From: Psammoneis japonica
Taxonomy: Eukaryota
Direction of reading: 5' to 3'
Assembly (NCBI GenBank): GCA_008632985.1
Contig: QPGO01000167.1
Coordinates: forward strand, 62,001 to 126,000
DNA length: 64,000 nucleotides
Part shown: in pieces, positions 2,880 to 64,000 of the stretch
Position numbering within the stretch: the stretch's first letter is position 1
How the letters are laid out: each line of letters starts with the position of its first letter
Notes under the pieces: model-generated
Told to the model about the DNA's origin: nothing
The model's input: only the letters and a program-made list of their open reading frames with translations
Database searches by the model: none
Translations under genes and position numbers: made by a program

Positions 2880-4960
2880 CATCGCCGGTGTCTGCATGTG
2901 TTGTGTGTGATGAGAGTCGTCATGGCGCTCGTGGAAAAACAAACTTGTTGCCACAACGTGTCACGACATGTTTTGTTTTTTCTTGGTTTTGTGATCATTG
3001 ATGATGTGGTGTACAATGGGAAGGAACAATCTTTTTGCATGACAGAGACTGATGACATCATGATGTGTGTGTTTGGAAATTGTGTGTGTGGTGGGGGGGC
3101 AACACACCAGAAAGCCACCATCGTTGTTCTGGCACACAGCCCTCTGGGTGTTGTGTGCCTGCTCACCCAAGCACACTGCACAGATGTTTTGGGCAGCTTC
3201 TTGGGAGAAACACAGAGGAGAAAACAAGTCAAAACAGAGAGAGAACACAATTGCTTCAGGCAGCTCGTCTGCTGCCCTGCTGGAACTTTTTGGCTGCAGT
3301 GCTGAAAACTCTGTGACATCAGAGTTTTTGGCAAAAAAATGCACCACATGTCATGCACAAACATTTCTGTGTGTGGTCTCCTTCAAAATTGTTTTGTGCT
3401 TTCTGTTTTGCAAAGGGCCCCAGAGGAGGCTCAGGGAGGCTGTGTGCGCTGCTCTTGTTCTGTGTTTTGCAAGAGCGCGCCTGTGCGGGCAAAGCAGAAA
3501 TGATGTGCTTCAAGGCAGAGGAGTTTTTGAGCATTTTTCAAAATTGCCTCTTTTTCCATTGGCAATCATTTGTGCATTCCTCCTCTCCTGGCACACATTT
3601 GCCCCCACACTCCTGACGTGATTCTTGCACCGCCGCGCCACCTGGCCACATCTCAAGCGAGTTCAGGGCACACCAAAATGACCTGACACAGCAGGAGACA
3701 CAGGTGAAAATGCAAGCAAATGACAACATGTCCACAAAACCTTTGTGTCAGTTGACAGAGCAATGTCTGGTTGGCGCAATGCACACTTTGCTTTTCAGAT
3801 GTTCATTGGATTCTCAGAGTGGTCCTGTCACACTGCTGGCATCATGTGTTGCATCATTGTGAGCCTTTGACTCTCTGGCGCAAACTGCACTTGCATCTCT
3901 GTGCACACACCCCTCCCAAACCACATTGTGTGATGTGGTTTGCCCACTCTGTGGGAGTTCTTGGCACATGCAATCATCTGTGCAATGAACCACCAAGTTG
4001 CTCAGAGTGTTTTTCTGGCATTGCAGCCATTTTGAACAAGATTCCAAAGATGGGCACACATGTCATTTTTTGACATTTTGTTTTTGGTGTCTCCCACACT
4101 GGAGGTGTGGTTGTTGGGATTTTTCATTCTTTGAGCACCACAGCAGCTGTGTCAAAGCATCCTGTTGATTTCCTGTTTTGACTTTTGAAGTCAAAATTCC
4201 TGGCACACTGTTTGGCTGGTGTGATGGGGGTGTGGGTCAATCCAGGACACATGGGTCTAGATGCAACAGCACTTGAAACGCAGACTTCTGCTTGACCCTT
4301 TGACCACCAGGGAAGCAAATCTGTGCCATTTTTCTTTTGTTCAGTGTGATGGCCTCAGACTTGTGAAGTTTTGTTTGGGTCCCCTTCAAGAAGTGCAAAG
4401 TTCTTGCACTCTCTTCTCAAGCTGCTGTTTTGTGATGCCCCTCTGTCCAAAAGTGCCCAACGCTGCACAAACAATGCTTTCAATTCATCCACACCCAAAT
4501 TTTGGTCTGTGTGCTGCACACAGGCCTGTTTCAGCAACTCTTCTGTGCATGAAAGACCTGCAAAATCCTGTCAGTGGCTGCAGCAAAGGTCAAAAGCTGA
4601 GTGCTTGCTTTTGCTGAGTTCTTCACTCATGTTTTGAACATGACAGGCTTGGCAAATGTGGAGAAAGTTGCGGTGCCACAAGAAAGTCAATGACACAATC
4701 AAGCACAATGTGCAGGTGTTCTTTGCAACAGCTCCCACTTCATTGCAGCAGCCATTTGTGTGCACCCTGTGTGGTCATTGTTGGCTGGCCATTGGACCCA
4801 CTGTAGATGCACTCCAGACACAGGTGGAATTTGTGTGACCCTGGGCTCACAGTGTTTGTCATCAAAAAGCAAGTTGCGCAAAGTGTCAACCGTCATGACT
4901 GAAATCGATTCCTTGAGGTCGTGGCCTGTTTTTTCGCGAAGCACTTTCAACTTGAAAGCA
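2880..4960. repeat. TpA-depleted degenerate repeat block A
   Basis: Almost no TA dinucleotides, TG/CA excess; 3330-3600 aligns with 7680-7960 and, inverted, with 18880-19250; boundaries approximate. Confidence 0.7.
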
Positions 4961-5056
4961 CGGGGATAAAGCACGATTTTTGTATGACTCATAACCCCTT
5001 CACATCCGATCACGGCCGGAGACGACTCTACGTAGCTACCGTAGCTGGAGCTCATG

Positions 5057-5115
5057 ACTCGACCGGCATGAAGCAACAATAGATCGACCGGCATGTTGCT
5101 TCATGCCGGTCGAGT
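5057..5115. repeat. Perfect 22-bp inverted repeat with 15-bp spacer
   Basis: actcgaccggcatgaagcaaca (5057-5078) and its reverse complement (5094-5115). Confidence 0.9.
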
Positions 5116-6954: not shown

Positions 6955-8700
6955 TGGTGTGCATGGGAGGAAGTCTGTCTGACTGTCTGCGCTCTCCAGA
7001 TGTTCTGGCCCAGACAGCTCATAATTTTAGTCAGTTGTGTTGTGCAACAACCATTCTGACTAAATGCTGCATTGCTGCTCGACAACATCACCGTTTTCTT
7101 GCGTCTCCCTCCTGTCCAACCATCAGGGGCTTGACCGACAGCAAAATGATGCTGGGGGTGCTGCTGCAAACTTTTTGTGGTGGGCTCCGGTTTTCTCCAT
7201 TTGTGAAGTGGGGGCACTTTTGTGATTTTGTTGTGGTGAGCCTCCCAGTTTTCTTGATTTCTTGAATCATGAGAGTTCCTCCATGACTCACATGGAGCCA
7301 TGACCCACTTGTTTGCATCATGGCAATGGCACCCACATGACCTTTGTCAACCCGTGCTTGGCATCATGGCCGTCTTTGCCCATCAGTTGGCAGCCTTTGC
7401 TGCATGCAGACTTTGTTGTGGGTTGAAAAATGTGGGCACAAGCTGGTGTGGCAGGCCTGTCACAGAGAGCAGATCTGTCAAATTCAGCGCCATTGTGGCC
7501 AAAAGCAAAGACGCAGTGCGGAAAACCAACGGGGCATTTTGCGGAAGCTCAAGATGGCTGCAAAAGAAGCTGTGCCCCCCCACAACGGCTGGCAAAGTAA
7601 AAAAAAGCTGACATGCTCCAGCTCCAGAGCAGGGCCTTGTGCTGTTAAAGTTTGACATTGACAGTTTTTGAGATGTGCCGTGTGATGCATGATGTCACAC
7701 ACGTGCATTTCTGTGTGTGCTCTCTTCTGCAAAATTGCCTCGTGCTCCCTGTTTTGCAAAGCCGCCAAAGGCCTGTTTTTTTTGCATTGTTGAAAGCAAA
7801 ATTGGCTGGGTGTGTGCTCTGGGATGCACACAAAATGCACCTGGGCAAGCCAGAAATGCTGTGTTTTAAGTGTGAAGGAGCCTGTTCATTCACAAAATTG
7901 CCTCTTTTTCTGATGACAAGCATCCATGTGCTCTTCATTGCCTGACAGTTTTGCTGCAGAGCATGCAAAGCAAACTTGGGGCATGCAACAATGTGACAGA
8001 CATGGAAAACATGACAAGGGGGAGGCTTGGCTCAAGTGCTGCAAACACAGAGATTCTCAACAGATTGTGCAGTTGGCACAGCACACAAACAGATGCTGGA
8101 AAAAAGAGCTGTGCAATTTTTAAGAGTCAAATCTTGTGGCTCTGCTTTCAATTGGCCAAGCAAGACAACAGCGCTGTGGAGCTTCCACTCATTTGATGAG
8201 ATGTGAGCTCTCCATGTGATGCCCTCAGCCTTGCTTTCACAATGAGGTTGTTGCCTTCCCATGAAACCCATTTTCCTGCAGGTTTAAAGAAAAGCCCAGG
8301 GTCTTTCTCCAACAAGGCCTTGCAGGCATTCCCTTTTGCTCCTTGTGATCTCAAAGCAGACCCACGCTGTTTGTTGCAGCTGGCACACAAGAAAGACTGG
8401 TGCAGCCTCCACTGCTCCAGGAGCCCCCTTGGCTCTCAAATCCACTGGCAGCAAAAATGACGGTGTCAAAAAAGCTGTTCGTTTTCTGTTGTCGTGGCGG
8501 CTCTTTGCTCTCTCTCTCTCTCTCTCTCTCTCTCACTTCTGCAGTTTTTGTTGCTGCCACTGCCGCTGTGGTTGTTCTGCTGTTTGCTGGGGAATTTCAG
8601 ATTGCAATGTTGCACACTTTGGTGGGCATCTTTTCTCACCGGGAATTGCACCAGAGAGAACGATTTGAAGACATTCAGGTGAGTCGTGCCTGAGTCCTGA
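6955..8700. repeat. TpA-depleted degenerate repeat block B
   Basis: TA nearly absent; shares core with blocks at 3330 and 18880; (CT)n at 8508-8534; preceded by ctctagctagctag. Confidence 0.7.
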
Positions 8701-8926
8701 ATGTCAAAAACATCATCAATGATGCGAACGCGATCCGCCGCAGATCTTGCTCTTTGTTCTTTGTACTTATTTGTGTTTTGGCTCTTCTATCGCCACTGTG
8801 TGCACAGCACGAATAGGATTTATTGTAGATTGTAGTATCACTCTAACGATCTTCACCTTGATCAGTTGACACACGGTTGTAGAGGCCAACCTTTGTTTTA
8901 TCACCACACACGTGTGGCAAACAAGA

Positions 8927-10505: not shown

Positions 10506-10738
10506 GATTGGCGAAACAATGAGAGAAAGGGCGCAACCAATTGGTGTTCGGCAGTTACTCTAATTATTGTTAGTTGCATCATACCGGTACGGTACTCAGG
10601 CTGAAGGCCAAGATTTTTTTGAAATGCGCAATTTCTCCATCCAACAAACATCTTCCTATACGTTTATTAGTATATTTTAAATTCAGAAACCGGATTTAGA
10701 ACACGCAGAAGGAGCTCTCTATCCTTTCTATTTTCACC

Positions 10739-11850
10739 ATGGCGGCTGCTGCTGCTCGTGCTCGTGCTCCAACCCAGTGGGATGCGACGAATGAGTCTAC
10801 TGGCGACATTGCGAGGGAGAAAGTGTCGTTCTTTCGATCGCTGTCGGATGAGGAAATCGCTCTCAGAAGCGCTGGTTCACATTTTGCCAGCATGGAAGAT
10901 CTCTGGGGACATGATGGTCTCCTCCAGTTTGGTTGGGCGAACTTTAATGCCACAACTCCTGCCACTGCGCAGGGAAGGTTGTGCAAATCATGTTACAATC
11001 ATCTTGACCAAGTGATTTGGGGAGCTGATGCTGGCTCAGCCACGATGAACCAACGTGGCAACGCTGTCAGGCTGGACACGTTTGGGGACACTCGTTGTCA
11101 GTCAGCGCACTTGCTTTCGCATGATGAATTGTGCCATGAGGCGCATGGCTTTCTTGCCGAGGCAGCAATCAGGATGAGCTTTGATCAACCAACCACTGCA
11201 GGCAAAAAAACATGGAGTGGTTGATCAATTCGCAATGTGAAACGAATGGGGGCGCTGCGCCAACTGGGGACGACTCACCCCGGCGTGGCTGAAGATTCTT
11301 CTGGCCGGTGTCCAAAACTGGCTGCAACGGCTCATCCCTGAAGAGCCATGCATTCAACAAGGTGCATCCACGTGAACAAGGAATGCACTGTGATGTAGAT
11401 GATCCTTCTGTTTTGATTGTGCCTTTGCCGACCTTGCAGCAGGTTGTGGATTGGGCCACAGACACAACGTCTGCTGCCGAGTGCAATGTTGTGGCAGTCA
11501 CCTTTGGTGACAATTCAACAGACACATCTTCCAACCTTGTGCATGCACTGCAAGAGTGCACACCTGCTGAAATTGAGGCTGGCAGATGTCTCTTGGAGAC
11601 TTTCCTCTTGGGATTGGCTGGTTCACTGAAGATGAAAGCAGTGCAAGAAAGCTTCGTGCAAGATGAACTACAAAGTCGAGCGCTGTCCCGACAGTCAAGC
11701 CTTGTGGACAATGTTTTGGACAAGACAACCACCAGGATTCGTGCTCCTTTTTTGTTGCAAGCAGGTGCAGCCATTCATGTTGCGAAGGGTGGGATGTCAT
11801 TGAGAACATCCTTGCCAGACCCATGGCTGCTGCTGTTGAAAGCAGCGACG
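10739..11850 (+). pseudogene. 5' part of a host gene (possible HNH-like nuclease fold) interrupted by the Gypsy element
   Basis: ORF pieces 10739-11224 and 11308-11850 with AHLL..C, NK, LIVP and PDPWLLLLKAA motifs; frameshift and stop; TA-depleted after ~11000. Confidence 0.6.
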
Positions 11851-12282
11851 TGCAGCATGCCTCGCTGCTGGACAACACGGCGAGACCGTGCACAAGCCTC
11901 TTGCACGTGGCAACGCAGTGTTGTTGACATGCACCTGGGAAGCATGACCACAGGAGGGCGTGGCTCTAAGTCTCAGGCAATTCCAGAAGGATGCCAAGAG
12001 AGCATCCGTGTGAAGCACACTGGCCCGTCGTCTGGCCCACGATGGCAGCGTGATTCCACACGATGACATCACTCGTGCATGGCGCGTGATGGCTTGATTC
12101 GCACGATCCATGATGCAAATGCACGATCGACCCAATGCGATCCAAATGCGAACGAGTGGGGATTTGGCAAGATTCCCTGTTCACACGATCCCATTTTCTC
12201 TGCTCTAAACCAGCTCACAATTTTCACAACGACAAAGTCGTAACACATCTTCTTTTTCAGCGCCTGGCACATGCACAGGGCA
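11851..12282 (+). repeat. Gypsy 5' LTR
   Basis: Starts tgcagcatgcc; colinear with 17725-18156; right end uncertain by 5 bp. Confidence 0.9.
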
Positions 12283-12343
12283 CAGCAACATTGCTCCCGC
12301 GTGTTGTGCGAGGTAACGAAATCTGCAGAAACGAAACTACGAA

Positions 12344-13435
12344 ATGTTGGCAGGACCGACAAATCTTAAAACGACCATGAAGAAGTGGATTGGGCCACCG
12401 ATTCTGTTTGCACGGCCGGAGAAGAAAGAGCTGCAGCAGGGCGAGCACCAGACGTTCAAGCCACGTAACAACCCTGCTGACCCGGACAGTCCAACGCACG
12501 AGATGGGCATTCCGCACCTTTCTGCGGCTGCATGCGAGACACTCCCAATCTTTCTGCGCAACGTGGATCGCGTGCGTGAAGGACAAAACATCGCGACCGG
12601 GCCAGCGAAATTTGCCCTTGTGCGTGACCTGCTGCAGGGTGATGCTCTGACGTCATTTGACAATGCCGCTGACAAGCAGGCATCCCAAACCAACGCTGCG
12701 CACGCAGCATGCGTCGCGAAGCTAAAGGAAAGTGTCTTCCCACACAGGGCGGCACTGTTGCAGAAGCGCTGTCTGAGGCGCTTCATGCGCAAGCCCGCAG
12801 AGGTTTCTGCTCATGACTGCGTCACGAGGGCTGTTGAAATTAACAGCTGTGTCTCTCAGTTTCCACCCGTGACGGAGGATGGAGAAGCACCGGCACCATT
12901 GCCCAATGACGAACTGTGCGACATGTTCGAGCATGGTGTGCCAAACGCATGGCAGAAGTTCATGATGCTGCAGAATTTTGATCCGTTGGCGCATGCTGTC
13001 GCCGAATTTATGCAGTTCTGCGAGCGCACCGAGCAGGTCGAGCTTGCCGCAGGCAACCGCGATCAACATGCTAGGGTCTCATGCAAGCGGGGACGTAGAA
13101 CAGACAATTCTGAGTCGTTGATCACGACCCAACCGAACACCCACGTGAAACGTGTCAAGACTGGACATTCCAGCAATGGAGGCAGCAAGCCCAGTGCAAA
13201 ACCTCGGAATGAGGAAGACGTTGATGCTCTCATCGGATCGAAGGTCAAGGAGTTCTTTGCCAATGCTCAGAAAAAGCACAAGGCACACGAGGAGGAGCTT
13301 GGTCACTTCAGCGACCTCAACTCAAGTGACTCCGAAGACTCGGACACTTGCCGACACGATGCAGGTGGTTTTAATCTCGCGCACGTGTGCGCGGTTGTTA
13401 GACTGTGCAGGTGTGTGCATGTGTGTGAGGTGTGA
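12344..13435 (+). pseudogene. Gypsy gag
   Basis: LLQGDALTSF, VFPHRAALLQKRCLRRFMRKP, VEINSCVSQFPP, GVPNAWQ; no Tyr in 363 aa. Confidence 0.8.
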
Positions 13436-14569
13436 GCAGGACACACGTAGAATTGCTGCTGAGTGATTGACATGCCGTGGATTTTCCGCCGGCACACAAT
13501 CTGCGTGGTCCACATGGAACATAAATTTGTGTTTGTCTCTGAGGCCATCACATGTCATTGATTTTGCTGAGGCCTCCAATGTGTGTGCACACCAATTCAA
13601 AAGTCTGACAGAACACCCCGAAAGAACTCTGGAATCTGGATAAAAAAATTTCCATTTAACGGTGCGAACAGGGTTTCCCCGAAGCGCTTCTCAAAATGTT
13701 CTCAGATTGGATGCAGCAAAACATCTGCCATTGGCAAAACAGAGTCACTGTCGGATGAACAGATCCCGTGTTCTTCGCGCGCAAACAACACGACAACGCA
13801 CAACAACACCATGGCGAGAAACGCGAGCGCCGTCCCCTCATCTACAAGCTGGGAATGCGAGATGCTGACGCGTTCCAGGTCCAGGTGGGACCTCGCACTG
13901 CTGAACTGTGACATCGACAGTTTTTTGAGTCTTGTCGCATGTCGCGCACGTAGATTTCTACATGATTTTTTCGATGTTTTGTGTCATTTTACGGTGCACT
14001 TGTTGAGAGATCCGTCCAACAACTTTTGACATTTTTTGTTGCAGCGCGATTCCACAATGTCTTAAGAATCGCGCAGGGCAGGCGAAGTTGCAAAAACGTC
14101 GAGTGGCAAGAGGCATGATTGCACCACAAACTTGGCCGTTTATTTGATGTTGAAGATGAACGCATCCATTGATTAAATTCTTGCACTACGGAGCTCGCAC
14201 GTAGAATTCTGCAGGCCCAATGTCACACGGAGTCCCACCCAGGGCTGGAACGCGTCTGCTGTTGAAGTGGTTGGACAACATGCATGCGCTGCATTCATGG
14301 GTCAAGTTGGGTTTCTTCTCGCTGCTTGTTGTTGCGTCATTTTACAACGTTTTGACCCACGCCGTGTTCTTTGCTTTGTTGCTTCTGCTCGTGCGCCACC
14401 AACAGCTCTTCCTGCAGGGTGTGGCCAGTTGCGCGGCTGCATCGAACCCAAACGTGCGCGACCAACTGGCCCCACCCCGGCTGACTCATGCATCAGATGA
14501 GTGCACAAATGAACAACTGAATTGCCATCGTACACGTGTTGCAGGCCAATCCCGCAAACGAGTTAAAAA

Positions 14570-17500
14570 GACTCATCTCACTCCAATCTTGTTCACAGCT
14601 GTGAACACTGAACATGGCAAGGGCAAGACTCAAACCATTAAGGCACTGCTAGATAGTGGCGCCAGCAGCACTCTACTCGACAGTCGACACTGTAAACGTC
14701 TGCGAAGCCATTCAACGGCTGAGACAAACTGGACTACGGTAGCAGGCTCGTTCAGTACGTCTAACGACTGTACCGTTAAATTTTGGTTACCAGAATTATC
14801 CGAAACTGCAGAACTTAAACATACCGTCCACGTACACAACGGAAAGTTGGGCAAGTACGATATGATTATTGGACGTGACATTCTGGAGACACAAGGCATT
14901 GATATTGTCTTCTCTAAACAGATGATAGAGTGGCCATTAGTCAATGGAGAAGTACCAATGAGGCACGTAGATGCTACGGTAGAAACCTCCTTCTATCTTC
15001 AAGATCCAGAAGCGTTACCTTCGGAAACCGACCGGATTTCGCGTATTTTAGACGCTAAGTACGCGCCGGCCTGCCTCGAGGACATAACGCGAGGGGCAAT
15101 AGGAATTTCTACAGTTCAATAAAACGACCTTTTGGCACTATTGAAACGCCATGAGTCCTTATTTGATGGGACATTAGGAGAATGGAAGGGAGAACCCTAC
15201 CATATCCAACTCAAGGAGGGTGTAGAACCATACCACGCTCGTCCGTATAAAGTACCTCGTGCGTACGAAGCTACGCTACGTAAAGAAGTAGAACGCCTAG
15301 TACGTATCGGTGTTCTCAAACGCGTTAACCGATCCCAATGGGCAGCTCCATCATTTATCATACCGAAGAAAGATTTAACGGTACGCTTTATTAATGATTT
15401 CAGAGAGCTGAATAAACGGATCAAGCGATTGCCTTATCCGATTCCTCATATCCAAGATATGCTACTTAAGCTCGAAGGCTTTATGTGGGCTACATCACTG
15501 GATTTAAATGTGGGCTGTTATCATGTCCGATTGGACACTGACAGTAAGAAGCTCTGCACGCTCATCTTCCCGTGGGGCAAGTATGAGATGCAGGTGTTGC
15601 CCATGGGATCATGTGATTCGCCAGACATTTTCCAAGAACGCATGTCAGGCTCATTTGAAGATCTGTCGTTCGTTCGAACGCACTCAGATGACCTTCTCGT
15701 CGTGACGAAAGGCACCCATGAAGATCACCTCAACAAACTTGAAGAAGTTTTGTTGAGGGTCCAGAAAGCAGGACTAAAAGTCATGCAACTAAATCTCACT
15801 TCTGTCAAACCCAATTAGAACACTTGGGTTGTCTGGTTGACAGAGACGGAATGTGACCAACACCTGACAAAGTCGACGCCATCAAGCGAATCGCGACCCC
15901 AACCAACAAACGCGACCCATGCTCATTTGTTGGCATGGTGAGCTGCTGCCGCGACACGTGGATTAGACGTTCTGAAGTCTTGGCTCCGCCAACACGACTC
16001 GCAAGCGAGGCTGTTGAGTGGGAGTGGATGTCCGTTGAAGACGAGGCGCTCGAAACCGTTGAACGGGTGACATCGGATGATGTTTTGTTGTCACATCCTG
16101 ATTTTAACAAACCCTTTGAGATGCACGCTGATGCCTCTAAATGTCAATTGGGAGCAGCCACATCCCAAGACAACAAACCCATCACCTTTTGCAGCAGAAA
16201 GCTCAACAGTGCGCAATTAAATTGTGCAACAACGGAGAGAGAATTGCTCGCCATTGTGGAGACGTTGAAAGTGCAATTGCACGTGCTGATCATAAAAATC
16301 TCACGTGCGCAGCATTCAACACCGAGCGCGTTATGCGCTGGTGCTTGACATGCGAAGAATGCGGCCCCGAATTACGCTGTGTCAAGGGTGCCCACAACCC
16401 AGTCGCTGACGCTCTCAGTCGCCTTCGGCCAGCACCCAGCTTGCCTTCCGAGGCCAATCCGGATGTGAAAGACACTCCATTGAGTCGTCCTTTACACGAA
16501 GCTTTTAATGCAGACGCGCAAGATGAGACATCTCTGCCTGTTAGCTTCAAGCGCATTCAAAAAGCACAACAAAAGGACAAGTGCCTGCTCTCACGAGTTG
16601 AGGACTCGTCCGACTGCTCCATTTGCGCGTGTCGTGGGGGAGGGTCATCACGACAGTTGATCTGTCATAAGGACAAAATCGCAGCACCACAGTCATTGCA
16701 GGTTCCGCCAACTGAATGGCACCACAAGACACTGTGTCATCCAGGTGAGACACGCACGGAAATGTCCATTGCCCAGCACTTCTGCTGGCCCAGTGTGAGG
16801 TCTACGGTGCATTTTACGTGCGTTGAGTGCGATCGATGCCAGAAGACAACACGCCGAACGCAGTGTTGTGGGAAGCCACCAGAAAAGGTCGCAGAGATAA
16901 TTCCATGGGAGACTCCATGCACAGATGTGACAGGGCCACACAAAATTCAAAGACGCGGAAAGGACACCTTGCAATTGTGGGCAGTCACAATGATTGACCC
17001 AGCAACCGGGTGGTTTGAGATTAAAGAAGTGTCTGTGAAACGCGCAGACGTCGCAGCAAACGTCGTAGAACAAACTTGGCTGTGCAGACATCCGTGGCCA
17101 ACCCAGGTGGTTTATGACCGTGGGACAGAATTTGTGGCAGAATTTAGCCAGATGATTAAAAATGACTGTGGGATTTTGAAGAAACCCATGAGCAAACGGA
17201 ATCCACAGGCGAATGCCACAGTGGAACGTGCACGCCAGACACTTGGCAACATGGTGCGTTGCTTTTCAGTGCAGGACATGGAACTGGACGAAGATGACCC
17301 ATGGAGTGGCATCCTCTCCGCAGTGGCCTTCGCTGTTGGAGCTGTGGCACATGCGACCACGCGTGCAAGTCCCGCGCAATTGGTCTTCGGACGCGATGCG
17401 GTTTTGTCTGTTGCCCATCATGCCAAGTGGAAGCACACAGAAACCAGAAAGCAGAAGCTTGTCCACTTAAACAACAAGCGTGAAAATCAGAAATGCAAGG

Positions 17501-17690
17501 AGTGTCAATGTGCCGCAGGGCAATTGGTGCTTGTCAAACAGGAACAATCCTCTAAGTGCGGTTCTGACAGCCATGCAGGACCCACCAGAGTTGTCCGTGT
17601 GTGTGACAACAGCACGTTGCATGTCCAGAACGGAGCGCTGACAGATGCGTGCAATCTGCGGCAGATTGTGCCCTGTCACCAGCAAGACAT
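14570..17690 (+). pseudogene. Gypsy pol (protease, RT, RNase H, integrase)
   Basis: LLDSGAS protease; DFRELNKRI and THSDDLL (expected YxDD) in RT; ADASKCQLGA RNase H; HH..LCHPG...C..C and VVYDRGTEF integrase; stops and frameshifts. Confidence 0.92.
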
Positions 17691-17724
17691 CCTGTCACTT
17701 GACGGCCCCAATCATGGGGGAGTG

Positions 17725-18156
17725 TGCAGTGTGCCTCGCTGCTGGACAACACGGCGAGACCGTGCATGAGCCTCTTGTGCGTGGCAACGCAGCATTGTCA
17801 ACACGCACCTGGGAAGCACGACCACAGGAGGGCGTGGCTCCAAGTCTTGGGCAATTCCAGAAGGATGCCAAGAGAGCATCCGTGTGAAGCACACTGGCCC
17901 GTCGTCTGGCCCACGATGGCAGCGTGATTCCACACGATGACATCACTCGTGCATGGCGCGTGATGGCTTGATTCGCACGATCCACAATGCGAACGCACGA
18001 TCGATTTAACACGATCCAAATGCGAATGAATGGGGATTTGGCAAGATTCCCTGTTCACACGATCCCATTTTCTCTGCTCTAAACTAGCTCATAATTTTCA
18101 CAACGACAAAGTCGTAACACATCTTCTTTTTCAGCGCCCAGTGCATGCATGGGGCA
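17725..18156 (+). repeat. Gypsy 3' LTR
   Basis: Starts tgcagtgtgcc directly after the PPT; same length as the 5' LTR. Confidence 0.9.
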
Positions 18157-18162
18157 GACGAG

Positions 18163-18360
18163 ACAAACTGTTCTGCCTTTCATGGGACAAGGCCAATGCT
18201 GGCGTGTCCTCCAAAGGTGGATGATGATGATGATGATGATGGCCCTCCAAACACAGTTCAAGGAATGGAAACAGAGCGACCCCCAGAGTCTTTCATGTCC
18301 GATGCAGTGCAGTGCAGGGGCTTTTCACACGGCCGTTTGGTTTGCGGTTCGCAGTGGTGA
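18163..18360 (+). pseudogene. 3' remainder of the host gene split by the Gypsy element
   Basis: TNCSAFHGTRPMLACPPKVDDDDDDD continues ...LLKAA(T) from 11850 in frame if the element ends at 18161. Confidence 0.55.
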
Positions 18361-30870: not shown

Positions 30871-30915
30871 TCCGTACGAGAATGGTGAGAGCTCATGATT
30901 ACCCTGCTCTAGTAG

Positions 30916-42610: not shown

Positions 42611-42619
42611 ACAATGGCC

Positions 42620-43135: not shown

Positions 43136-43308
43136 GTAGAAAAGCATTATTTGTCAATCCAGTGCTAGCGTAGATTTTAACGAGGCTTTGAAAGTGATTA
43201 GATTGAACTTTTAAAGCTTTTTTGGATGGCACACAGTTTTGTTCCATGCGACACATTTGACTACACCTTGCGGCAGTAGATTTAGTGAGGTGGCCGGTCA
43301 ATGCTGGT

Positions 43309-45374: not shown

Positions 45375-46270
45375 TCGTTTAGTCGTGGCGCCAGAACCCC
45401 GGGTGCGGCACCCAGGTTTTTTTTAATTGTTTTAATAAGGAATTTATTCTTTCGACCAAGAAATTACTGTTTTTAATACGGAACAATAGCCGTTGACAAA
45501 TGACACATGCGTCCGTTGAATCGATAAGATGTCAACACGATATTGTTTACAATCATTTCGGGCCTCATATATGTACTCTTACTTTAATAACCCTGCTTAT
45601 GCACACGAACCACCTGGTGGTCCGTGTGCATTTTTGGGTGCACACGAACCACCTGGTGGTTCGTGTGCACCCTACGCAAAATGCTGCGTAGATTTGTACC
45701 GAATTAAATCTGAATGCCTACATCTGCAGTAGGCTCTACGTGAAAACGCACTCGAAACAGTGTCCACCGAGCCGGCAGTCATGTGCCGGAACGTCGTGAA
45801 AAGTATTTTATGTCTGAGAAAGAGTTCGTCAGGGCCGGCGAACAACACCCCTCTACGATGCGACTGGTATAAAATGTACGTAAATGCACAGGAACCAGCA
45901 TGTGGTTCGTGTGCAAATTAGAGCTCGTGAAAAATAAGCAGGGATAATTGCAGATCAAAATGAGGTTGATATATCCAAAAATGAAAAACCCGGGCGCCAC
46001 GCCCTATTTCTGGTGACAGCTGTATCTCTTGTAGAGTGCACACTTTGCCGTTGGTTTTCTATTGAGAAATCTACAGAACTAAAAAGAGTATAAGAGGGTG
46101 GCGTTATGTTATATCGAAAGAGTGTTGGTAGTGCCGAACAAAGTAGCCGAAAATATTAGTGCTCCGTATGAAAAAATCAATTTCTTGGTCGAATGCATAA
46201 TTTCCGTATTAAAAAAATTAAATAAAAACCCGGGTGCCGCACCCGGGGTTCTGGCGCCACGACTAAACGA
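45375..46270. mobile_element. Non-autonomous TIR element (MITE), ~900 bp
   Basis: ~110-bp terminal inverted repeats starting tcgtttagtcgtggcgccagaaccccgggtgcggcaccc; internal 31-bp palindromes; flanks TA (left) and CA (right). Confidence 0.85.
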
Positions 46271-46466
46271 CAGTGATCATTCTTCCCTTCATCACATCAC
46301 ACGCCGTGAACAGTCATTGTCTTCGCGCGTGCTCACTTTTCGAGTGATTGGGCCGATGCCCAACTTCTGGGACCTGTTCTCCATTTGCAGAATTCATTGT
46401 CCAGAACAGAGAGCCCTGTCTCCAAGAAAGGCATGCACAGCACATGTGTGCAGAGGAGATGCTCGC

Positions 46467-49400: not shown

Positions 49401-52400
49401 GGTGACGACGTTCGCGTCATTGCATGCACCTCTTGCCAAGTCGACGTTCAGGGCATTGACGACCATCAATTGGTGGACATCCCCATTGTCACCGCTGGTG
49501 CCATCATCGAGACCCAGCATGGTCCCGTCATCGCCATCCTCCATCAGCACGCATGCACGGGCAAGGGCAAGACCATTCATTCCTGCGGCCAGCTCGAATG
49601 GCACAAACAGGATGTCAACGATTGCTCTGTCAAGGTGCCCAATGGCTTGCAACGCATTGCCACTCCTGATGGCTGTGTCATCCCCATTGACATCAAGGGC
49701 GGCCTGCCTTGTGTTGCCATGCGACCTCACACTGACGCCGAATGGGACACCCTGCCCCATGTCATCCTCACCGGTGATGACACATGGGATCCTCCCGTCC
49801 TCGATCACTCTGTCACTGACAACGACCAGTGGTGCGACGCGATCTCTGACCCACAGGACGATCCCACTGCCAACCCATTTGACGAATGCGGCAACTGTCG
49901 TCATCGTGTTGTTGTCAACGAGACCATCATGTCCGCTTCCTTGTCTGCCGATCACGCATCCGCCCTCGATGATCACCTCATTCCGAACGACGACGTGTTC
50001 TGCGAGTGTCATCTGCACGCGATTGACCCCAAGGACGACGACGTTCCGCCCCCGGAGCGCACTGTGCAGCCCAAGGACCCCCCCTTCAAGTCTCTTTGGC
50101 CTTGCTTTGGCTTCCCACCTGCCGATGCGGTCCGTCATGCTTTTGACTGCACCACGCAGTGCGTCCGCATGCCCGCCGGTGCACACCTTAGGAAGGCCTG
50201 CAAATCACCCAACCCCGCCCTTAATGTGCACCGCCACAACGAGCCTGTCACCACTGACACCGTTTGTGCCGACACCCCGGCCGTCGACTCTGGTTGCACC
50301 AGCGCCCAACTGTTTGTTGGCACCGAGTCTACCGTCACTGACGTCTGCAGCACCAAGACGGACAAAGAGTTTGTCAACACACTCGAGGATCAGATCCGTG
50401 AGCGTGGTGCCCCATCCAAACTCATCAGCGACCGTGCTCAAGTTGAGATCAGCAACAAGGTGCTCGGGATTCTACGAGCCCTCTTCATCTCCAGCTGGCA
50501 AAGTGAGCCTCACCAGCAACACCAAAACTTTGCCGAGCGTCGACACCAGACCGTGAAGCGCATGGCGAACACTGTCATGGATCGTTTCGGAGACCACGAA
50601 TGGAAAGTGAACGGCAATCCTGAGCTCACTAAGTTCGTCTGCTCTGTCAACAACGACGAATGCGAGGAAGTCCTTGCCTGCAACGACATCATGAATCACA
50701 TTGAGCAAGAAGACGAAGACACTGCTGTTTGGAAATTTCGACGCATCGTGTCACACGAAGGACCTCTGAAGCCTCATGACCCAACCTGGAAAGGCTCAAG
50801 CTACAACATCATGCTTGAATGGGAAAGTGGGGAGATCACGTCCGAGCCTCTTGCCATCATCGCCAAGGACGACCCCGTCACCTGCACCATCCATGCACGA
50901 GAGAACGGACTTCTCGACACTGATGGCTGGAAGCGGTTCTGCACCATCGCGAGGCGCCAGAAGAATCCATTTTGCATGGCCAACCAAGCCAAGCTTCACT
51001 CCTTCCGCACTGCACCTCGCCACAAGTGCGGATGCGAAGTTCCCCGGAACTGCAAACACACCATGTCACCAGACGAACGCAACGGCAACCGCAAATGGGG
51101 AGACGCAACTAATCTCAAGATGGACCAACTCGGGGAATGCGAAGTCTTCCATGACTGCGGGCCCTTCGAGTCTTCCACTCCTCCTGTGGGACACAAGAAG
51201 ATCCGAGTGCACCTGGTGCACGACGTGAAACACGACGGTCGCCACAAGGCATGACTCGTAGCCGATGGGCACCTCACGGATGTGCCCATCGACAGTGTCT
51301 GCTCTGGAGCAGTCTCCCTCCGTGGCCTTCTGCTGATGATTTTCCTGGCCGAACTCAACGAGTTGGAGACATGGGCCACCGACATTGGCAATGCCTGCCT
51401 TGAAGCCACCACCAAGGAGAAGCTCTACATTGCAGCCGGACCCAAATTTGGCAAACTCAAAGGACACATCCTTGTCATCCACAAAGCCCTGTGTGGACTG
51501 CGCAGCTCCGGTCTCCGCTGGCACGAGTGCTTCGCCGACTGCCTGCGAGCTGAAGGCTTCTTCCCCTGCCGCGCCGAACCCGACATTTGGATGCGCAGGA
51601 ACGACGACCACTGTGAACACATTGCCGTTCATGTGGATGACCTCGCCATTGCTGTGAAGGACCCTCAATCTTTCGTCGATGCTCTCACGGAAAAGTGCAA
51701 GTTCAAGCTCAAGGGCACGGGACCCATTGAGTTCCATCTGGGTTGCGACTTTTCCCGGGATCCCGATGGCCTCACCGGATGCTCTGTCATGGGAATGCTC
51801 CACTTCCTCAACAAATTCCCGGCTGATTGGTTCTCTAAGAAGCAAGCCACTGTGGAGACTGTGACCTGCGGGTCTGAATTTGTTGCCGCAAGGACTTGTG
51901 TCGAGCAGATCATCGACCTGCGCATCACCCTGCGCTGCCTTGGCGTCCCTGTCCGTAATGTCAGTTGCATGTTCGGTGACAACAAGTCGGTTGTAGACAG
52001 TGCCACCATCCCGCACTCCAAGTTACACAAGCGACACACCGCACTGTCGTTCCACCGTGTGCGTGAGGCAATTGCCTCTGGTCACCTTGAGCTCCACTTC
52101 ATCGAAGGCTCCCGCAACCCTGCTGACATTCTCAGCAAGCATTGGGGTCACTCCCAAATCTGGGACCTTCTCCGCCCCCTCATGTTCTGGAACTTCATTC
52201 CATCCGAAGTCAAATCTGTTTCTGTGGCTCCTCAAGCAAACTGGGGAGTGACAGGATTTGGACAGGATTCAGGTGCGCGCAAAATGTCGCGCGCTGTTTA
52301 GTTTGCCGCGCACAGTTTTGTGTGCTTTAGTTCCACGCGTTCGCGCGCGATGTAGTTTGCTTTCGAGCCACAAGGCTCACAAGAACAACAACAGCAGCCC

Positions 52401-52524
52401 GATTGTGCTGACTTGCACGTCTTTCGGCTCCTGTGATGGTCTCTGAGCGGAGACTCATCTGCTGTTTAGACAGCAGCAAGGAGTTGTTGTTTGAATTCTT
52501 GCCATTTGCCTTCAATTTCTGTCA
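46467..52524 (+). mobile_element. Ty1/Copia LTR retrotransposon 2 (diatom CoDi-like), internally deleted
   Basis: 276-bp LTRs 46467-46742 and 52249-52524 (TGACAG..CTGTCA), TSD CTCGC/CTTGC, PPT ggggag. Confidence 0.95.
47679..52248 (+). pseudogene. Copia 2 gag-pol
   Basis: FKRGIKRD, VDRGANGG protease, LISDRAQVE and SEPHQQHQNFAERR integrase, KHDGRHKA*LVA, HVDD (expected YVDD), CGSEFVAAR, GDNKSVV, NPADILSK; deletions near 50590 and 51770. Confidence 0.92.
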
Positions 52525-54050
52525 CTTGCCTTTCTTCAGCTCTGCACCTGCTCAGAGGCAGAGACAATGGCACTTTTCTCCCGCGATTTTTTTTGTTCTC
52601 TTTGTGGCAACTCGCTGAACAAATGTCAAACCAAGATGGCCAACAATCAGACAAAAAGAGTTTGATTGCATTTCAGCAATCACCAGGTTCTGCAGCTGGT
52701 GGAAGAAAAACAAACTTCTTGCTTTTCAAGCACATGTGTGGAGGTGTTGTGGGGAAGCAACCCACCTCCGAGCCACACAAAAACTCAGTTGGTGCAGGAG
52801 CAAGCCCAAGCATGCCACTGAGCATCTAATTTGTGATGCTCTTGAAGTGCTCTTCATCTGAGTCCACCTTCTTGAGATGCTCCAAGTTTGTGACTCTCAG
52901 CACCACCAGCTGTGATTTTGTCAAAATGGCAAAAATGCCAGGGGCAAGCATCTCCTGCACCCCCCTTCGACTCAGCAGCTCACCTGCAAATCCAAGAGCT
53001 TGCAGCTTGCTGAGCAACCACCAAGAGAAAAACAGCTTTTGGGTTTAGAGCAGCAGCACCTGGGGGTTCTTCAAGAAATGATGTTGATTTTTGTCCACAA
53101 CAGGGCAACGACACAAGCAGGCTGGCCAGCTTGGATTGCTCCCAGTTCCTCCAAGCAGTGCTCCATCAAGCAGTTGCTCTCCAGTTTGGCACCAAGCAAT
53201 GACTCTCCCAGAACATTTTGCCTTGGTCAGCATCATTTAAATCAAACCCCCAACAAACCAAAATGTTTGCAATGCAAATGATTTTAATTTGCAGGTTTTG
53301 TGGGGACAGAGGGTGTGCACCCTCACATGGGGAAATTGGGTGACTGTTTCACAGTGAAACATGTTTTCCTCATGGGAGGGAGGGGGGTCAGACCCCACAG
53401 CATGAAATTGTTCACATCTGCAATGGTTGACATGTCATCACCACACGCACAACTGGTGCAAGGCATTGTGCAGCACAGAGTTTTTACGTGCAAAAGGGAA
53501 AAACATCACTGTGAAAAAGGTGGCCTCAATCACTGCAACATGTGCTTTGACGTTGTGCACAACTTTCACATTTTGGAAATGACTCAAATGCACCAGGCAC
53601 CAGATCAGATGGCGACATTGCGCGTCACACCCAACATCTGACAAAACTGACAATGACCAATGATGTGCATCTTGGCTTGCTGCACATGTGGCACTGAGTC
53701 ATCCCACAAGTTTCTCTGCAGTGGCCGCGCAATCATGCCCTGCTTGATTGTAGCAGACGTTGGCTCACATGTTCACACGTGTGTGTGCACACACAGCAAA
53801 TGTGCCAGCCAGCCTGAGGTGTGCCATTGCATCATCTGCACAGGCACTGCCCATTCCAGGCTGCCAAGAAAGGTTGAAAATGCAGCTGAGACAACCAAGA
53901 ATTGGACAAAGAAGACAATTGCAGTGGGGCAATCAACAGGTTCTGTCATTGTGCAAAACTTGTTTCAGCTTGACCCCCCTCCATTTATTGGCGACACCCA
54001 AAAAGTGGTGGGTGGATGCACGTACATGCGCATTGCATGTCAGCACACAT
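52525..54050. repeat. TpA-depleted flank right of Copia 2 (unidentified relics)
   Basis: TA largely absent up to ~54050; no identifiable ORF. Confidence 0.55.
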
Positions 54051-58744: not shown

Positions 58745-59520
58745 GAGAGCAGTCGAGAGAGAGAGAGAGCAGTCGAGGTTCCAGCATCCATGCCAGAGCA
58801 ATTTGAAAATAGTGCACAATGTGACTGGGATAAAATCAGCCCAGATCCCACTCGATTCTTGCAATGTGCCCACCCCTCAAGCGTGCTGGCACTTTTCACT
58901 TTTTTCTGGCTGAGGGGATGCTCCCATGATGGTCTCAAGAACAGGTTTCAAGCAGCACCCCAGCAGCATTTCAACTTGCAAGCAAGCTTCTTGAACTCAA
59001 GCAAAATCTATTTTTCCAAAAAATGTTCTGCAAGACACGACTCTCCTGCTGGCAGTGGAGCCAGCGCAATGCTTGTGTTGGTGGCAGCTGAAGAATGAAG
59101 TTTTTGGGCAAAGTTCTTGGCATTTTTGAAGTTTGCAATCCATGATGGAAAGGGCACCATTCAAATCCTTCCCAGTGATCCAAGATGTGCTGCTTTGCCT
59201 TGTTTTGCCAAGCAGGGTTGTTTGTCTCATTCAGGTTGCCAATCACAAGCCTGACATCCAGCACAACCATTGGAACAAGTGGTTCTTCAGTGGAAACATC
59301 AAAGCACTTGCCTCAATTCTTGATGACCTTGTTGCATTGTTCACATCATTGGCATTGTCCTGCATGACTTGTCAAAGACTGACTCTGTTGAACACAAAAC
59401 CACTGAGGACTCCAGTGAAGCATTGGCATCAATGCTTGGGAAAGACAACGCGAAAGAAGTGTGCACATGCCCAGTTGTTTTCAATTCCAGTTGGCTTCGC
59501 CGAGTTGGGTCTGGAAAAGA
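58745..59520. repeat. TpA-depleted block F
   Basis: Begins after ctagagtagagagag/(GA)n tract; TA nearly absent. Confidence 0.6.
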
Positions 59521-59625
59521 GCGCTGAGTAGAGTCATCTTGCCGGCAGAGACTCTTCCTGCAGATCTCAACAAAGTTGACTGCCGGAGAGAAGAAGAACT
59601 CATTTAACGCAAATGCGATTTTACT

Positions 59626-60732: not shown

Positions 60733-60877
60733 GTTGTTGTTGGCCCGCAGAATAAGCAACGCAACAACAGTTTCGATAAACCATTTTGCACGGAAGATAG
60801 ATGGCGAGACGAAATTGGATGCGCGAAGACGCAGATAAGATTTTCCCGCCCAAGCAAGCCACGTGTGTAAAAATTCA

Positions 60878-62869
60878 GGCACGTTCCCACCCCGATAATT
60901 TCGGCCGTAAAATAAATATAATTTCGTTCTACACAAAATTCCTGTAGAAACTCTCGTACAAGAAAAATCGCACGTCTGTTTTCCATCCGCCAATTTACAG
61001 CCGAAATTATCAGCAAATTACGACGACAGGTGTCGGTCGTCGTAAATTCTCTCCCGTAAATATAATTTTCACGGTAAATTCGGCGTTTTGGGAGCTCGAA
61101 CGTGCCACGTCACACAAGCCGCCCATTTTTTTTCTTTCTCCGCTCCGATCGCACAACAACCATGATGGCTGCTGCCATGAACGGACCCGTTCATACCCCC
61201 ACTCGGGCAAAAAATCGAACCACTCAGTGGCTCGCAACTTGCGCAGCGTAAAACTCGCAACTGACACAATGAAGTGGCACCCACACAGATGCAACCTTTT
61301 GACAGAGGCAAAAAGCCATTGTTGTCAATGCATTGTGTTGTTAGCGGCCACTCGTGTGTGGAGCTCGGTTGCCGTCAAATCACCGTCATGGTCATTGTCG
61401 GTGATTTTCTCACCCCGCAGAAACAACCGCAGGGCAGCACCAGAAAAAAATGTCGAACCATTGAGCGGTTCGCCACGTAGACAAGCACCGGGAGCCCCGC
61501 AGAATTGGTGAACCATGAGGTGGTTCGGGAGGACGAGCGTAGAAATGTGCGTGGCAATTTGCACCAGAGGGTCGAATGCAAAATTGAACCAGAAAAATGA
61601 GGCTCACGATGAACAAGACGGCAGCAGTGCGGAGAAGTTTAAGAACATGGCAAACCACTGAAACAAAGCACACATGTTGTCAAACAGATGTTGCTGCATC
61701 GACTGATGCAATGTTGTTGCAGACATCTCATTGTCTTTTACACTTTCACCCATCGTCTGTCGGTTCATTTTTGGCTTGCCGCGAGCCACTTGATGGTTCG
61801 GGGCAGGAATCGCGCATTCGTGATTTCGCGCGGCAAACCACTGCATGGTTCGCGCTGGGAGTGGGGACACACGAACGACCGTCCTGTCTACGAAGGCAAG
61901 AATGTAGAGACAGGTCAATGAGACTACGCTCGATGCGATCAAGCTGTCACAATTTTGATTTTTTGTTGTTGTTGTGGCTTGTGACGACAGTGTCGACCAA
62001 CGGCATTTTTGATGTCTTCGTTTCTCTTGTTCAGATTTCATTGGGATTCTTCACAAACCATGCGTCTGCAGACTTGAGGCTGAATCCTCGCAGCAACACA
62101 TTATGATCTGATGTCACATTGAGGTGGTTCTTTGGTGTGTGCTCAAGGTCACTTGATTGACGGCCAAGAGTCAAGAGTGCAACATTTTGGTCACTTCAAC
62201 AACAACAGGAAGGCTTGTTGTGACAGAATGTGACTGTGAAGAAGGCTGTGTGCTCTTGTTTCATCAATCTTGTCGGAAGTTAGGACAATGATGCCGGTGG
62301 GGGTCAACGTTTTGTGCAACATCGTCGGCATTGTGCCTCACAGTGCCTCACTCTGCTGTCTGGAGGCCTTCTCTGCGACTTGCTCTTTGTCACTTTGCTC
62401 TTTGTTGCTTTGCTCTTTGAAATGGATTTGGGCCAATGGCAAACCGCAAGAGTTGACAATGGTGCCTTTTAGTGCCTCACATTCTGTAGAAATTATGTCC
62501 AGCAGTTTTGCGTGCTGCAGTCTCACTGCGCGCCATTGTTTCGTGCATCTTTCTGATCTCTCTGCAACTCTTGCCAGTGGATTGAATGTTGGGCACATTT
62601 CTTCTGACCTTCACTGGTGTCACCCTGAGTCTTGGGTTGCCGCAGAGCAATCGCAAAATGGACAACGATTGTCACTGACAATGTTGTGGTGTCTCTCTAG
62701 CTGGCAGCTCTAGCCAGTGCTGTGGCGTGTGGCGTCCTCACCGAGCTCGACATGAGATTTTGATCTTTTTTGCCGATCGAATTCGTTCCCAGCCTGATGC
62801 CCGTAAATGCGCAAATTTGGCCAAATTGCATTCATTTTACGGCCGAAATTGTCAGGGTGGGAACGTGCC
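60878..62869. mobile_element. ~2-kb TIR element, possibly PIF/Harbinger-like, no intact transposase
   Basis: 47-bp inverted termini ggcacgttcccacccYgaYaatttcggccgtaaaat..; TCA on both flanks as 3-bp TSD candidate. Confidence 0.65.
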
Positions 62870-64000
62870 TCAGTGTCTCTTGTCACCCCCCGAAACAATC
62901 CGAGCAAGTCATGCAAATTGGACGCTTCTCAGAATGGCTGTGCCTCATTGTCTGCACAAACAAAGAGCTGAGACAAAACATTCGATGCTTCAATGACTGA
63001 CAATGTTGCACCACTTGACAATCTTGGGGAGAATGATGTCCCTGCTGCCTGCTCTTGGGCTTCGTTTGGATGTTCAAGAACACCGGCAACCTCTCTGACC
63101 AAAACTCTTGACTGCGGTGCTTGCCGCTCATGAATGGTCGGGTGCAGTGGACAGAGAGTGCGCAATGTTGCACAGTCTGTCGTTGTCAGAGCAACATGCT
63201 TTGTCTTGTGTTTGTTGTCTTTGTGCTCAACTTTGTTGCCCAACTCTTGACAAACTTGCAAAGTTGAAGACGCAAGAACTCGGCAGCATTTTCAACCACA
63301 GCGATGATCCAACAAGTCCTGGCAGGCCAGCTTTTTTCCTCTTGATTTTTGTCATTGGTGAAGCCAACTCTCACAGCAATGTCTGCAAGTCAAGTTTCTT
63401 GATCTGCCAGCAATCCATTTCTCACATCCTTGTTCAGGGCACTCAGAGAATTGGGCCTCATTTTTCCTGCCCACAAAGCCATGAGGTGAGCAACATTGCC
63501 CACTGAAGTGCCAGTTCAAATTTTCAAGATGAGCTGTTCAAGAACATTTTGTTTGTGGCCTGTCCAGATGCTCATGTCAAGCAAGCTGGGGATGAATCAA
63601 GGCACATGCTGGGCCCACTTCTCAAGCTTTGCAATGGCCACTTTCAATGAGGTTGTAGAGAAAAAGAAGGCCAGCGGCGCACTGTTGGCCATTTTGAGGG
63701 AGTTGAGTTGAAAAAAGGTGTTTCTGATGATGGTCCAGAGTTGATGAGGATTGATGGTTGTTGGGTGAGGTCAGCCTGTGGTGTTTCACAAGCTGAGTCC
63801 ACTGTCTTCAGGCACAAGGAAAATGAGACAATGGGAGGTCTGTTCCATGTGGCTCCAAGGAGAGAGACGTGTGTTGTCAACTTTCCTGTCAAGAACTCCA
63901 AAAGTCAGTCAGAAAATGCTGATGACCCAGTTCCCAGTTTTGTGCAACAGCGCAACAACTGCGCACAAGCTCCAGGGGGGGGGGGGCAGCTGAGAGACCC
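62870..64000. repeat. TpA-depleted block G (continues from inside the TIR element to the window end)
   Basis: TA nearly absent; no identifiable ORF. Confidence 0.55.

Follow-up and report, generated by a model that had tools for sequence, protein, structure and literature searches.

TA-depleted blocks and retrotransposons in the window

We analyzed a 64-kb stretch of DNA (contig QPGO01000167.1, hereafter the window) in which host genes alternate with blocks that have lost nearly all of their TA dinucleotides and that probably consist of transposon DNA. A two-state hidden Markov model (HMM) on TA positions delimited eight TA-depleted blocks covering ~34 kb (2861-4966, 7062-8763, 10730-14530, 15583-29084, 41484-43136, 46265-53985, 58832-59604, and 61076-64000), with edges within about 0 to 270 bp of the block coordinates given in an initial annotation of this DNA. 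Comparison with a host duplication copy, described below, places the true right edge of the block at 41484-43136 at ~42880. An assembly gap of 379 N (32260-32638) is seen by a naive scan as a false TA-free block (HMM 32254-32671).

Comparison of the window with itself revealed one tandem duplication of host DNA and three pairs of long terminal repeats (LTRs), each pair enclosing an element with a target-site duplication (TSD). Pfam matches in the LTR elements correspond to protease, reverse transcriptase (RT), and integrase domains. The features are listed below, with dinucleotide contents as observed/expected ratios (O/E).

2861..4966, no strand: old TA/CpG-depleted block without recognizable coding remnant; 3 TA; O/E of TA 0.02, TG 1.78, CA 1.99, CG 0.27
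7062..8763, no strand: old TA/CpG-depleted block; 5 TA; O/E of TA 0.05, CG 0.31
10730..11850, no strand: older depleted DNA flanking the gypsy element on its left, beginning abruptly at 10730; no Pfam match
11851..18156, + strand: Ty3/gypsy LTR retrotransposon; LTRs at 11851-12282 and 17725-18156; 4-bp TSD GACG
14531..15582, + strand: unmutated island in the gypsy element (protease and N-terminal half of RT); 75 TA; TA O/E 0.99
18157..21877, no strand: older depleted stretch between gypsy and copia 1; TA O/E 0.02-0.17 in 1-kb bins; no Pfam match
21878..29038, + strand: Ty1/copia LTR retrotransposon 1 (copia 1); LTRs at 21878-22074 and 28845-29038; TSD AAAAC
41484..42624, no strand: old TA/CpG-depleted block between the host duplication copies; no Pfam match above cut-off; for HMM block 41484-43136, O/E of TA 0.11, CG 0.43
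42625..42880, + strand: conversion spill-over into host-derived DNA (duplicated 3' exon of a Der1-like gene), by comparison with the sister copy
46265..46466, no strand: left part of an older depleted block split by copia 2; TA dense up to 46264, then none before 46546
46467..52524, + strand: Ty1/copia LTR retrotransposon 2 (copia 2); LTRs at 46467-46742 and 52249-52524; TSD CTCGC/CTTGC
52525..53985, no strand: right part of the older depleted block split by copia 2; joined by the TSD to 46265-46466; TA dense from 53986
58832..59604, no strand: small old depleted block; 2 TA; O/E of TA 0.04, CG 0.26
61076..64000, no strand: depleted block running past the window end; 20 TA; O/E of TA 0.11, CG 0.63; no Pfam match above cut-off

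The LTRs of the gypsy element are 92.1% identical, and its Pfam matches are RVP, RVT_1, Integrase_H2C2, and rve. LTR identity is 89.8% in copia 1 (Pfam SH3_retrovirus and RVT_2) and 94.2% in copia 2 (RVT_2), the polyprotein frame of which extends from 47556 to 52301 with one in-frame TGA at 51252; the two copies of its TSD differ by one CpG-type change. To the left of the gypsy element, TA occurs every 5 to 60 bp up to 10729 and then only five times up to 11850. The older DNA around the elements is also poor in CG, with O/E values of 0.18 to 0.37 at 18001-20000 (1-kb bins), 0.24 in bin 42001-43000, and 0.21 in bin 53001-54000, where TA O/E is 0.09.

The 131 open reading frames (ORFs) of at least 70 amino acids (aa) in the old blocks gave no Pfam match above the curated cut-offs and three below them, and an Rfam gathering scan of the window gave no matches. 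Copia 2 was inserted inside an older block, since its TSD joins the two depleted flanks. The insertion point of copia 1 is 46 bp from the edge of older TA/CpG-depleted DNA, and the gypsy element has depleted DNA on both flanks. The positions of the three elements suggest nested insertion into islands that were already silenced.

Conversion of TA to TG and CA

The blocks contain 193 TA, versus 2015 ± 33 (minimum, 1942) in 200 mononucleotide shuffles, and TA density is 5.7 per kb inside the blocks versus 45.1 per kb outside (Fisher p = 2e-247). Per HMM block, O/E is 0.02-0.15 for TA, 1.53-1.78 for TG, and 1.50-1.99 for CA, whereas TA O/E in the host stretches is 0.51-0.69 by HMM segment; the corresponding 1-kb bins have TA at 0.02-0.28 and TG and CA each at 1.4-1.97 in blocks and TA at ~0.42-1.04 in host stretches. 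The initial annotation had described blocks rich in TG/CA and without nearly all TA, set among host genes of normal TA content, and had confined the conversion to transposon blocks; within the window, these counts bear it out on all three points.

Relative to the DNA outside, the blocks contain, per kb, 39.4 fewer TA and 9.3 fewer CG, with 27.0 more TG and 23.0 more CA; pooled, the four dinucleotides number 248.2 per kb in the blocks versus 246.8 per kb elsewhere. As much TG and CA was gained as TA and CG was lost, and the TA loss is therefore balanced by a gain of TG/CA. Both strands are affected, the TpG and the CpA products each being increased. GC content is 0.47-0.54 in the blocks and 0.44-0.48 outside. 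CG O/E ranges from 0.26 to 0.85 across the blocks, CpG decay being a second, slower process beside the TA loss. CpG is likewise scarce in blocks away from the intact LTR elements (CG O/E of 0.26-0.43 in the HMM blocks wholly outside them and 0.18-0.37 in several 1-kb bins of depleted stretches).

TAA and TAG occur at 2.2 and 1.4 per kb in the blocks versus 9.8 and 9.7 outside, and TGA is slightly more frequent. Because TAA and TAG vanish, the blocks contain long spurious ORFs; very long ones are found in several frames on both strands, for example, overlapping ORFs of 303 to 689 aa across 48216-50556.

The effect on proteins was evaluated by aligning the copia 2 polyprotein with 45 of 120 listed homologs (the first 45 of 1,800 to 1,950 residues), with a conserved column defined as one with Tyr in at least 80% of the 45. 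At the 27 conserved Tyr columns, the window has Tyr twice, Cys 17 times, His 7 times, and Trp once, and all other conserved residue types are retained at 75 to 100%. Replacement of Arg by His or Cys, found at 6/47 conserved columns of copia 2, points to CpG decay. When the gypsy integrase was aligned with 71 of 150 listed homologs, none of its four conserved Tyr was retained (two His and two Cys), and its Tyr fraction is 0.002, versus 0.034 in the 71 homologs. Single Tyr residues remain in the gypsy gag (373 aa) and integrase (543 aa) ORFs. For copia 1, the ORF fragments overlap in the copia 2 alignment and are too divergent (~31 to 42% identity at conserved columns), so that their Tyr count is uninformative. 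These results agree with the earlier observation of Cys or His in place of Tyr in the transposon proteins, a replacement that destroys coding capacity (2/27 Tyr retained in copia 2 and 0/4 in the gypsy integrase). The individual motifs on which that observation drew are present as well: the gypsy RT has THSDD, within FVRTHSDD, its integrase has WHH, and HVDD, KALCGL, and TCGSEF are found in copia at 51255-52301. Likewise, Tyr is absent from the 587-aa ORF from 26764 (copia 1), which has 38 Cys and 35 His, and occurs three times in the 1201-aa ORF from 47649.

A metagenome scan with the copia RT gave two loci, L001 and L002, both with ordinary TA (O/E of 0.65 and 0.59, respectively), and a scan of viral contigs with homolog P0121 found no relative. 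We threaded L001, a copia relative, codon by codon onto the copia 2 RT: its 30 TA are read in the window as CA in 12 cases, TG in 9, and TA in only 2, while the other 15 dinucleotides are retained at 35 to 67%. In L002 (1-1257), CG O/E is 0.19, TG 1.66, and CA 1.56, with TA at the ordinary value; the host of L002 has methylation decay without the TpA process. We also found an ENA protein from another public assembly (P0153, 735 aa) with Cys (seven) or His (four) at 11/24 aligned conserved-Tyr columns. Alone among 119 copia homologs, it has partial Tyr-to-Cys/His replacement interspersed with retained Tyr, and from its sequence it looks like a half-converted copy elsewhere.

The direction of change is from TA to TG/CA. 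The Tyr columns, L001, and the LTR pairs described below agree on a mutational conversion on both strands, as the initial annotation had claimed.

Timing, boundaries, and trigger of the conversion

The two LTRs of one insertion are identical at the start, and their differences record what happened afterwards. We counted 47 difference events in the three LTR pairs: 20 adjacent CA/TG doublets, 9 cases of TA versus TG/CA, 13 CpG-type changes, 5 other transitions, and no transversions. In all, 29/47 events are TA-derived, against 13 of CpG type and 5 other transitions. In contrast, 91 of the 221 events in the host tandem duplication are transversions, and only two doublets occur there. Evaluation of the dinucleotide states in the LTR pairs revealed 4 TA/TA, 20 CA/TG, 46 CG/CG, and 13 CG versus TG/CA. 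A CA/TG doublet is the result expected when one ancestral TA is resolved independently in the two LTRs; an ancestral CG is an improbable source, because 46 CG/CG survive versus 13 that are half decayed.

Assuming that TG and CA are equally likely outcomes, we estimate ~53 ancestral TA in 905 LTR columns (20 discordant, ~20 concordant, 4 shared, and 9 half-converted). This corresponds to 5.9%, within the range of unmutated transposon TA (7.1% in the island and an estimated 4% or so in L001), and therefore most or all of the conversion took place after insertion, in the chromosome. Since insertion, ~84% of TA lineage-sites and ~11% of CpG sites have been lost, and an estimated ~0.3% of other LTR sites have changed; by these LTR-pair estimates, the rate of change at TA exceeds that at CpG ~16-fold and that at other sites several hundredfold. 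Conversion occurred in place, postintegration.

The LTR pairs bear directly on whether the elements were edited before integration, by an ADAR- or ADAT-like enzyme acting at UpA/TpA on retrotransposon double-stranded RNA or cDNA, with the changes fixed by reverse transcription. All three recognizable elements are indeed LTR retrotransposons, and ADARs favor a 5' U (a preference also found in the Discussion of 10.64898/2026.01.13.699255, a preprint considered below). However, such editing predicts LTR states that are shared, whereas we found 20 CA/TG doublets and 9 TA-versus-TG/CA discordances; moreover, flanks joined by a TSD are converted too, as is host-derived DNA adjoining a block (11 versus 0, see below), and the loss of catalytic Tyr would halt further copying cycles. 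We consider preintegration editing very unlikely.

Sister LTRs also speak to selection, under which the elements would have become free of TA by adaptation, for example, to evade a nuclease directed at TA or UpA. TA is under-represented in host genes too (O/E of 0.5-0.7), which such a reading could invoke, but the sister LTRs came to different states at the same sites, catalytic Tyr residues have been lost to other residues, in-frame stops break the reading frames, and the related elements L001 (0.65) and L002 (0.59) have normal TA. The probability that we assign to selection is practically negligible.

The depletion domains have edges that are sharp within about 50 to 250 bp. At the right end of copia 1, TA is absent from 28913 to 29084 and thereafter occurs every 4 to 40 bp, the first being at 29085, so that the edge lies at most 46 bp past the end of the LTR; similarly sharp edges are found at 10729/10798, 46264/46546, and 53751/53986.

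The host tandem duplication (38630-41043 and 42625-45043) is 2.4 kb long and 88.8% identical, and it contains a sulfatase/SGSH gene together with the 3' exon of a Der1-like gene. Its second copy holds only a truncated Der1-like fragment. Copy 2 adjoins the old block at 41484..42624, and when its first ~250 bp are compared with 38630-38880, 11 TA-to-TG/CA changes run in the direction from copy 1 to copy 2 and none in reverse. In the remaining ~2.1 kb, TA changes are balanced (15 versus 10). Conversion thus spreads a short distance into whatever adjoins a target. Apart from the 250 bp next to the block, this linked 2.4-kb duplication was spared, and the process is therefore not triggered by homology as repeat-induced point mutation (RIP) of fungi is. 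The repeat-associated, RIP-like trigger that had been proposed at first is thus not supported by this result nor, further, by the old blocks that are largely single copy and yet saturated, while some high-copy gypsy copies retain TA.

Within the gypsy element, the 1,052-bp island at 14531-15582 has ordinary composition (O/E of TA 0.99, TG 0.94, and CA 1.01) and sharp edges. About ten of the ORF's 11 Tyr lie inside it, as read from the translation, and its in-frame stop at 15120 is a TAA. The island could be the product of gene conversion, of a consensus switch in a high-copy family, or of true patchiness. Together, the spared island and the spared copies imply that targeting is not uniform.

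We then looked into the reads. A contig from run X1 at single-copy depth (62.5) matches 6903-8498 with no differences, and X1 contigs cover 2000-4904 with a few differences; those over the block at 2861..4966 are near single-copy depth, with some parts repeated. The gypsy family is very abundant, with 7,526 X1 contigs placed on the stretch and a summed depth over the element of mostly 1e4 to 1e5. Among 40 listed differences from X1, 16 have CA/TG in the window and TA in the contig, and none has the reverse. TA-bearing gypsy copies therefore coexist with the converted copy.

These data limit the room for an artefact, in which base-calling, polishing, or consensus errors in repeats would have written TG/CA for TA. 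Such an error could be favored by the very high copy number of the gypsy family, and the knife-sharp edges of the island could reflect a consensus switch, but the old block at 6903-8498, at single-copy depth, was reproduced by X1 without differences, the changes are coherent at the codon level, and they respect the boundaries of elements and TSDs. Moreover, we know of no error mode specific to TA on both strands. The agreement with X1 excludes a consensus quirk only in part; taking all points together, we regard an artefact as extremely unlikely.

High-depth contigs of both X1 and X2 run from 13863 directly to 14262 without the 398 bases in between, a segment that most other gypsy-family copies lack. 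Run X2, labeled "DNA?", covers only some host-gene stretches, at depths of about 3 to 460, and leaves the old blocks uncovered; over the gypsy element, it provides three short pieces (13374-14489), two of which have many differences from the window. Over 2000-17600, its pattern is more like that of a transcriptome than of genomic DNA.

Targeting, chemistry, and known systems

The TA dinucleotides that survive in the blocks have a biased context. They are rarest as RTAY (13 versus 393 in host sequence) and commonest as YTAR (77 versus 226), and ATAT and GTAT are nearly absent (0 versus 110 and 1 versus 93, respectively). ATA/TAT contexts account for 30/193 survivors, compared with 110/245 TA in unmutated transposon DNA, a set composed of the island, L001, and L002 (p = 1e-10). 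The product-context balance, i.e., the change in TG versus CA per tetranucleotide between blocks and host, gave no strand rule and was noisy because transposon and host compositions differ. When Tyr-codon outcomes (17 Cys and 7 His overall) are sorted by preceding base, His is found at 3/4 T-preceded sites, these numbers being small.

We propose, with a probability of about 80%, that the blocks are transposon DNA, namely, three intact LTR retrotransposons nested in older, unrecognizable remnants, and that a regionally targeted, in-chromosome process converted this DNA from TpA to TpG/CpA after integration, almost to saturation. Several observations weigh against this proposal or parts of it. 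The 1,052-bp island lies untouched in a saturated element, and other gypsy-family copies still have TA. The flank bias yields no strand-specific rule, and neither the Tyr-codon outcomes nor the product-context balance fits a simple model in which the 3' neighbor of the target A matters. The link to methylation is based solely on CpG depletion, and X1 may be the data behind the assembly, in which case the read check is not independent. Finally, the host was assigned to diatoms from the names of homologs, at 53 to 69% identity.

The host genes between the blocks, as recognized by Pfam, encode an ammonium transporter, a class-C receptor, sulfatases, and a GH81 glucanase, among others. The ammonium transporter has its best named relatives in Seminavis, Nitzschia, Entomoneis, Odontella, and Trieres (55 to 63% identity), and the glucanase has its own in Cylindrotheca and Pseudo-nitzschia. 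Seminavis is a diatom according to taxonomy, and we take the other six genera to be diatoms as well. From these homologies, the host is most likely a diatom, one that has no public proteome, rather than Bigelowiella.

As for the mechanism, a host enzyme would act on silenced, cytosine-methylated transposon chromatin. The adenine of TpA may be deaminated to hypoxanthine in DNA, an option that we rate at slightly less than an even chance; a thymine-side modification that mispairs with G has a small share, and another TA-directed lesion or a repair bias would account for the remainder. The elements would be irreversibly inactivated, the Tyr of catalytic motifs becoming Cys or His and reading frames staying open as TAA and TAG vanish. 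Adenine deamination would be the simplest chemistry, and it agrees with the UpA context in which tRNA adenosine deaminases work (U at position 33, target A34).

A modified T at TpA, for example of hydroxymethyl-uracil type, would be converted to C by mispairing with G in the same in-place process. Because TA is self-complementary, A-to-G on one strand is indistinguishable from T-to-C on the other, and the strands cannot be told apart in the sequence, where the increases of TG and of CA are about the same (+27.0 and +23.0 per kb). A thymine modification with TpA preference occurs in dinoflagellate DNA. However, the window offers nothing that favors thymine chemistry over adenine deamination, and the candidate proposed in the preprint cited above is ADAT2-like, by similarity of sequence and predicted fold only (10.64898/2026.01.13.699255). 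We consider thymine chemistry unlikely, though worth keeping in mind.

The closest precedent is that preprint. The initial annotation knew of no described eukaryotic pathway of this kind, a statement now outdated, since TpA-to-TpG/CpA hypermutation was measured de novo in mutation-accumulation lines of Bigelowiella natans, as described in this bioRxiv preprint of 2026 (10.64898/2026.01.13.699255). According to the preprint, 231/302 nuclear single-nucleotide mutations were in two integrated viral regions, where nearly all were A-to-G or T-to-C and all of these on TpA; the rate was ~6e-7 per site per generation in the viral regions versus 3.5e-10 elsewhere, and some lines only were affected. TpA-poor coding sequences were enriched for RT and DDE domains, and an ADAT2-like protein was proposed as a candidate. 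The words diatom, retrotransposon, context, trinucleotide, and flanking do not occur in the main text of the preprint. Our literature search for TpA-directed mutation of transposons returned only this preprint and nothing for diatoms.

To the extent that the preprint's main text allows the comparison, the two cases share a restriction almost entirely to A:T-to-G:C transitions at TpA, affecting both strands of foreign-derived regions, a strong rate contrast (of the order of 1000-fold in B. natans and several-hundred-fold here, by the LTR-pair estimate), and incomplete targeting, with lines or regions not hit there and a spared island and spared copies here. They differ in host, B. natans being a chlorarachniophyte (Rhizaria) and the host genes of the window being diatom-like, and in target: giant-virus and virophage inserts with many TpA left (Rho 0.45) versus LTR retrotransposons and old remnants at O/E of 0.02-0.15. 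Judging from the sequence signature and from the preprint's account, the process in the window appears to be the same phenomenon in a second lineage, at saturation.

More broadly, diatoms, and perhaps SAR (stramenopile, alveolate, and rhizarian) protists widely, may carry a dedicated pathway of TpA base conversion that would act on silenced transposon and viral chromatin, spread over tens to hundreds of base pairs, outpace CpG decay more than tenfold, and depend on a natural DNA adenine deaminase or thymine modifier. We offer this as a tentative idea, on balance more doubtful than probable. If true, such a pathway would be a second kind of mutational genome defense beside fungal RIP and a natural counterpart of the laboratory adenine base editors, and its enzyme would be of a class for which activity on chromosomal double-stranded DNA is not yet known.

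TpA hypermutation had been described before in one preprint and one chlorarachniophyte, and a second occurrence suggests that it is not a single-species curiosity. The window adds that ordinary retrotransposons, and not viral inserts alone, are targets of the process, and it connects the process with domains of CpG decay that are probably methylated. Any mechanism has to account for the lack of dependence on duplication, the spread over short distances into flanks, the flanking-base bias, and the spared patches and copies. Diatoms dominate ecologically, and some of their species can be manipulated genetically, so that the identity of the enzyme is testable there. Such blocks also hide transposons from annotation (131 ORFs without a Pfam match above cut-off) and yield long spurious ORFs.

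Decay of 5-methylcytosine at CpG is also seen in the window (CG O/E of 0.26-0.43 in old blocks, 13 LTR events, and Arg to His/Cys at 6/47 columns), but it removes CG, not TA, and so cannot account for the TA loss. In diatoms, transposons are CpG methylated via DNMT5a, and in one diatom the loss of DNMT5a is reported to strip the DNA of methylation and to de-repress young transposons (PMC9998398), in keeping with the CpG decay of the window.

With ADAR hyper-editing, the process shares the A-to-G outcome and the 5' U/T preference, but ADARs, an animal enzyme family, act on RNA, which leaves the LTR discordance and the converted host flank unexplained. With APOBEC3, it shares a deaminase-style hypermutation that cripples retroelements; however, APOBEC enzymes convert C to U on single-stranded cDNA before integration and leave strand-biased G-to-A changes, whereas the changes in the window are at TpA, on both strands, and postintegration. 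Like fungal RIP, it inactivates transposons irreversibly and in place, in a single dinucleotide context, with some leakage into neighboring DNA. Unlike RIP, which is triggered by sequence duplication and changes C to T (mostly CpA to TpA), thereby creating TpA and lowering GC, the process in the window spared a 2.4-kb tandem duplication, destroyed TpA, and raised GC.

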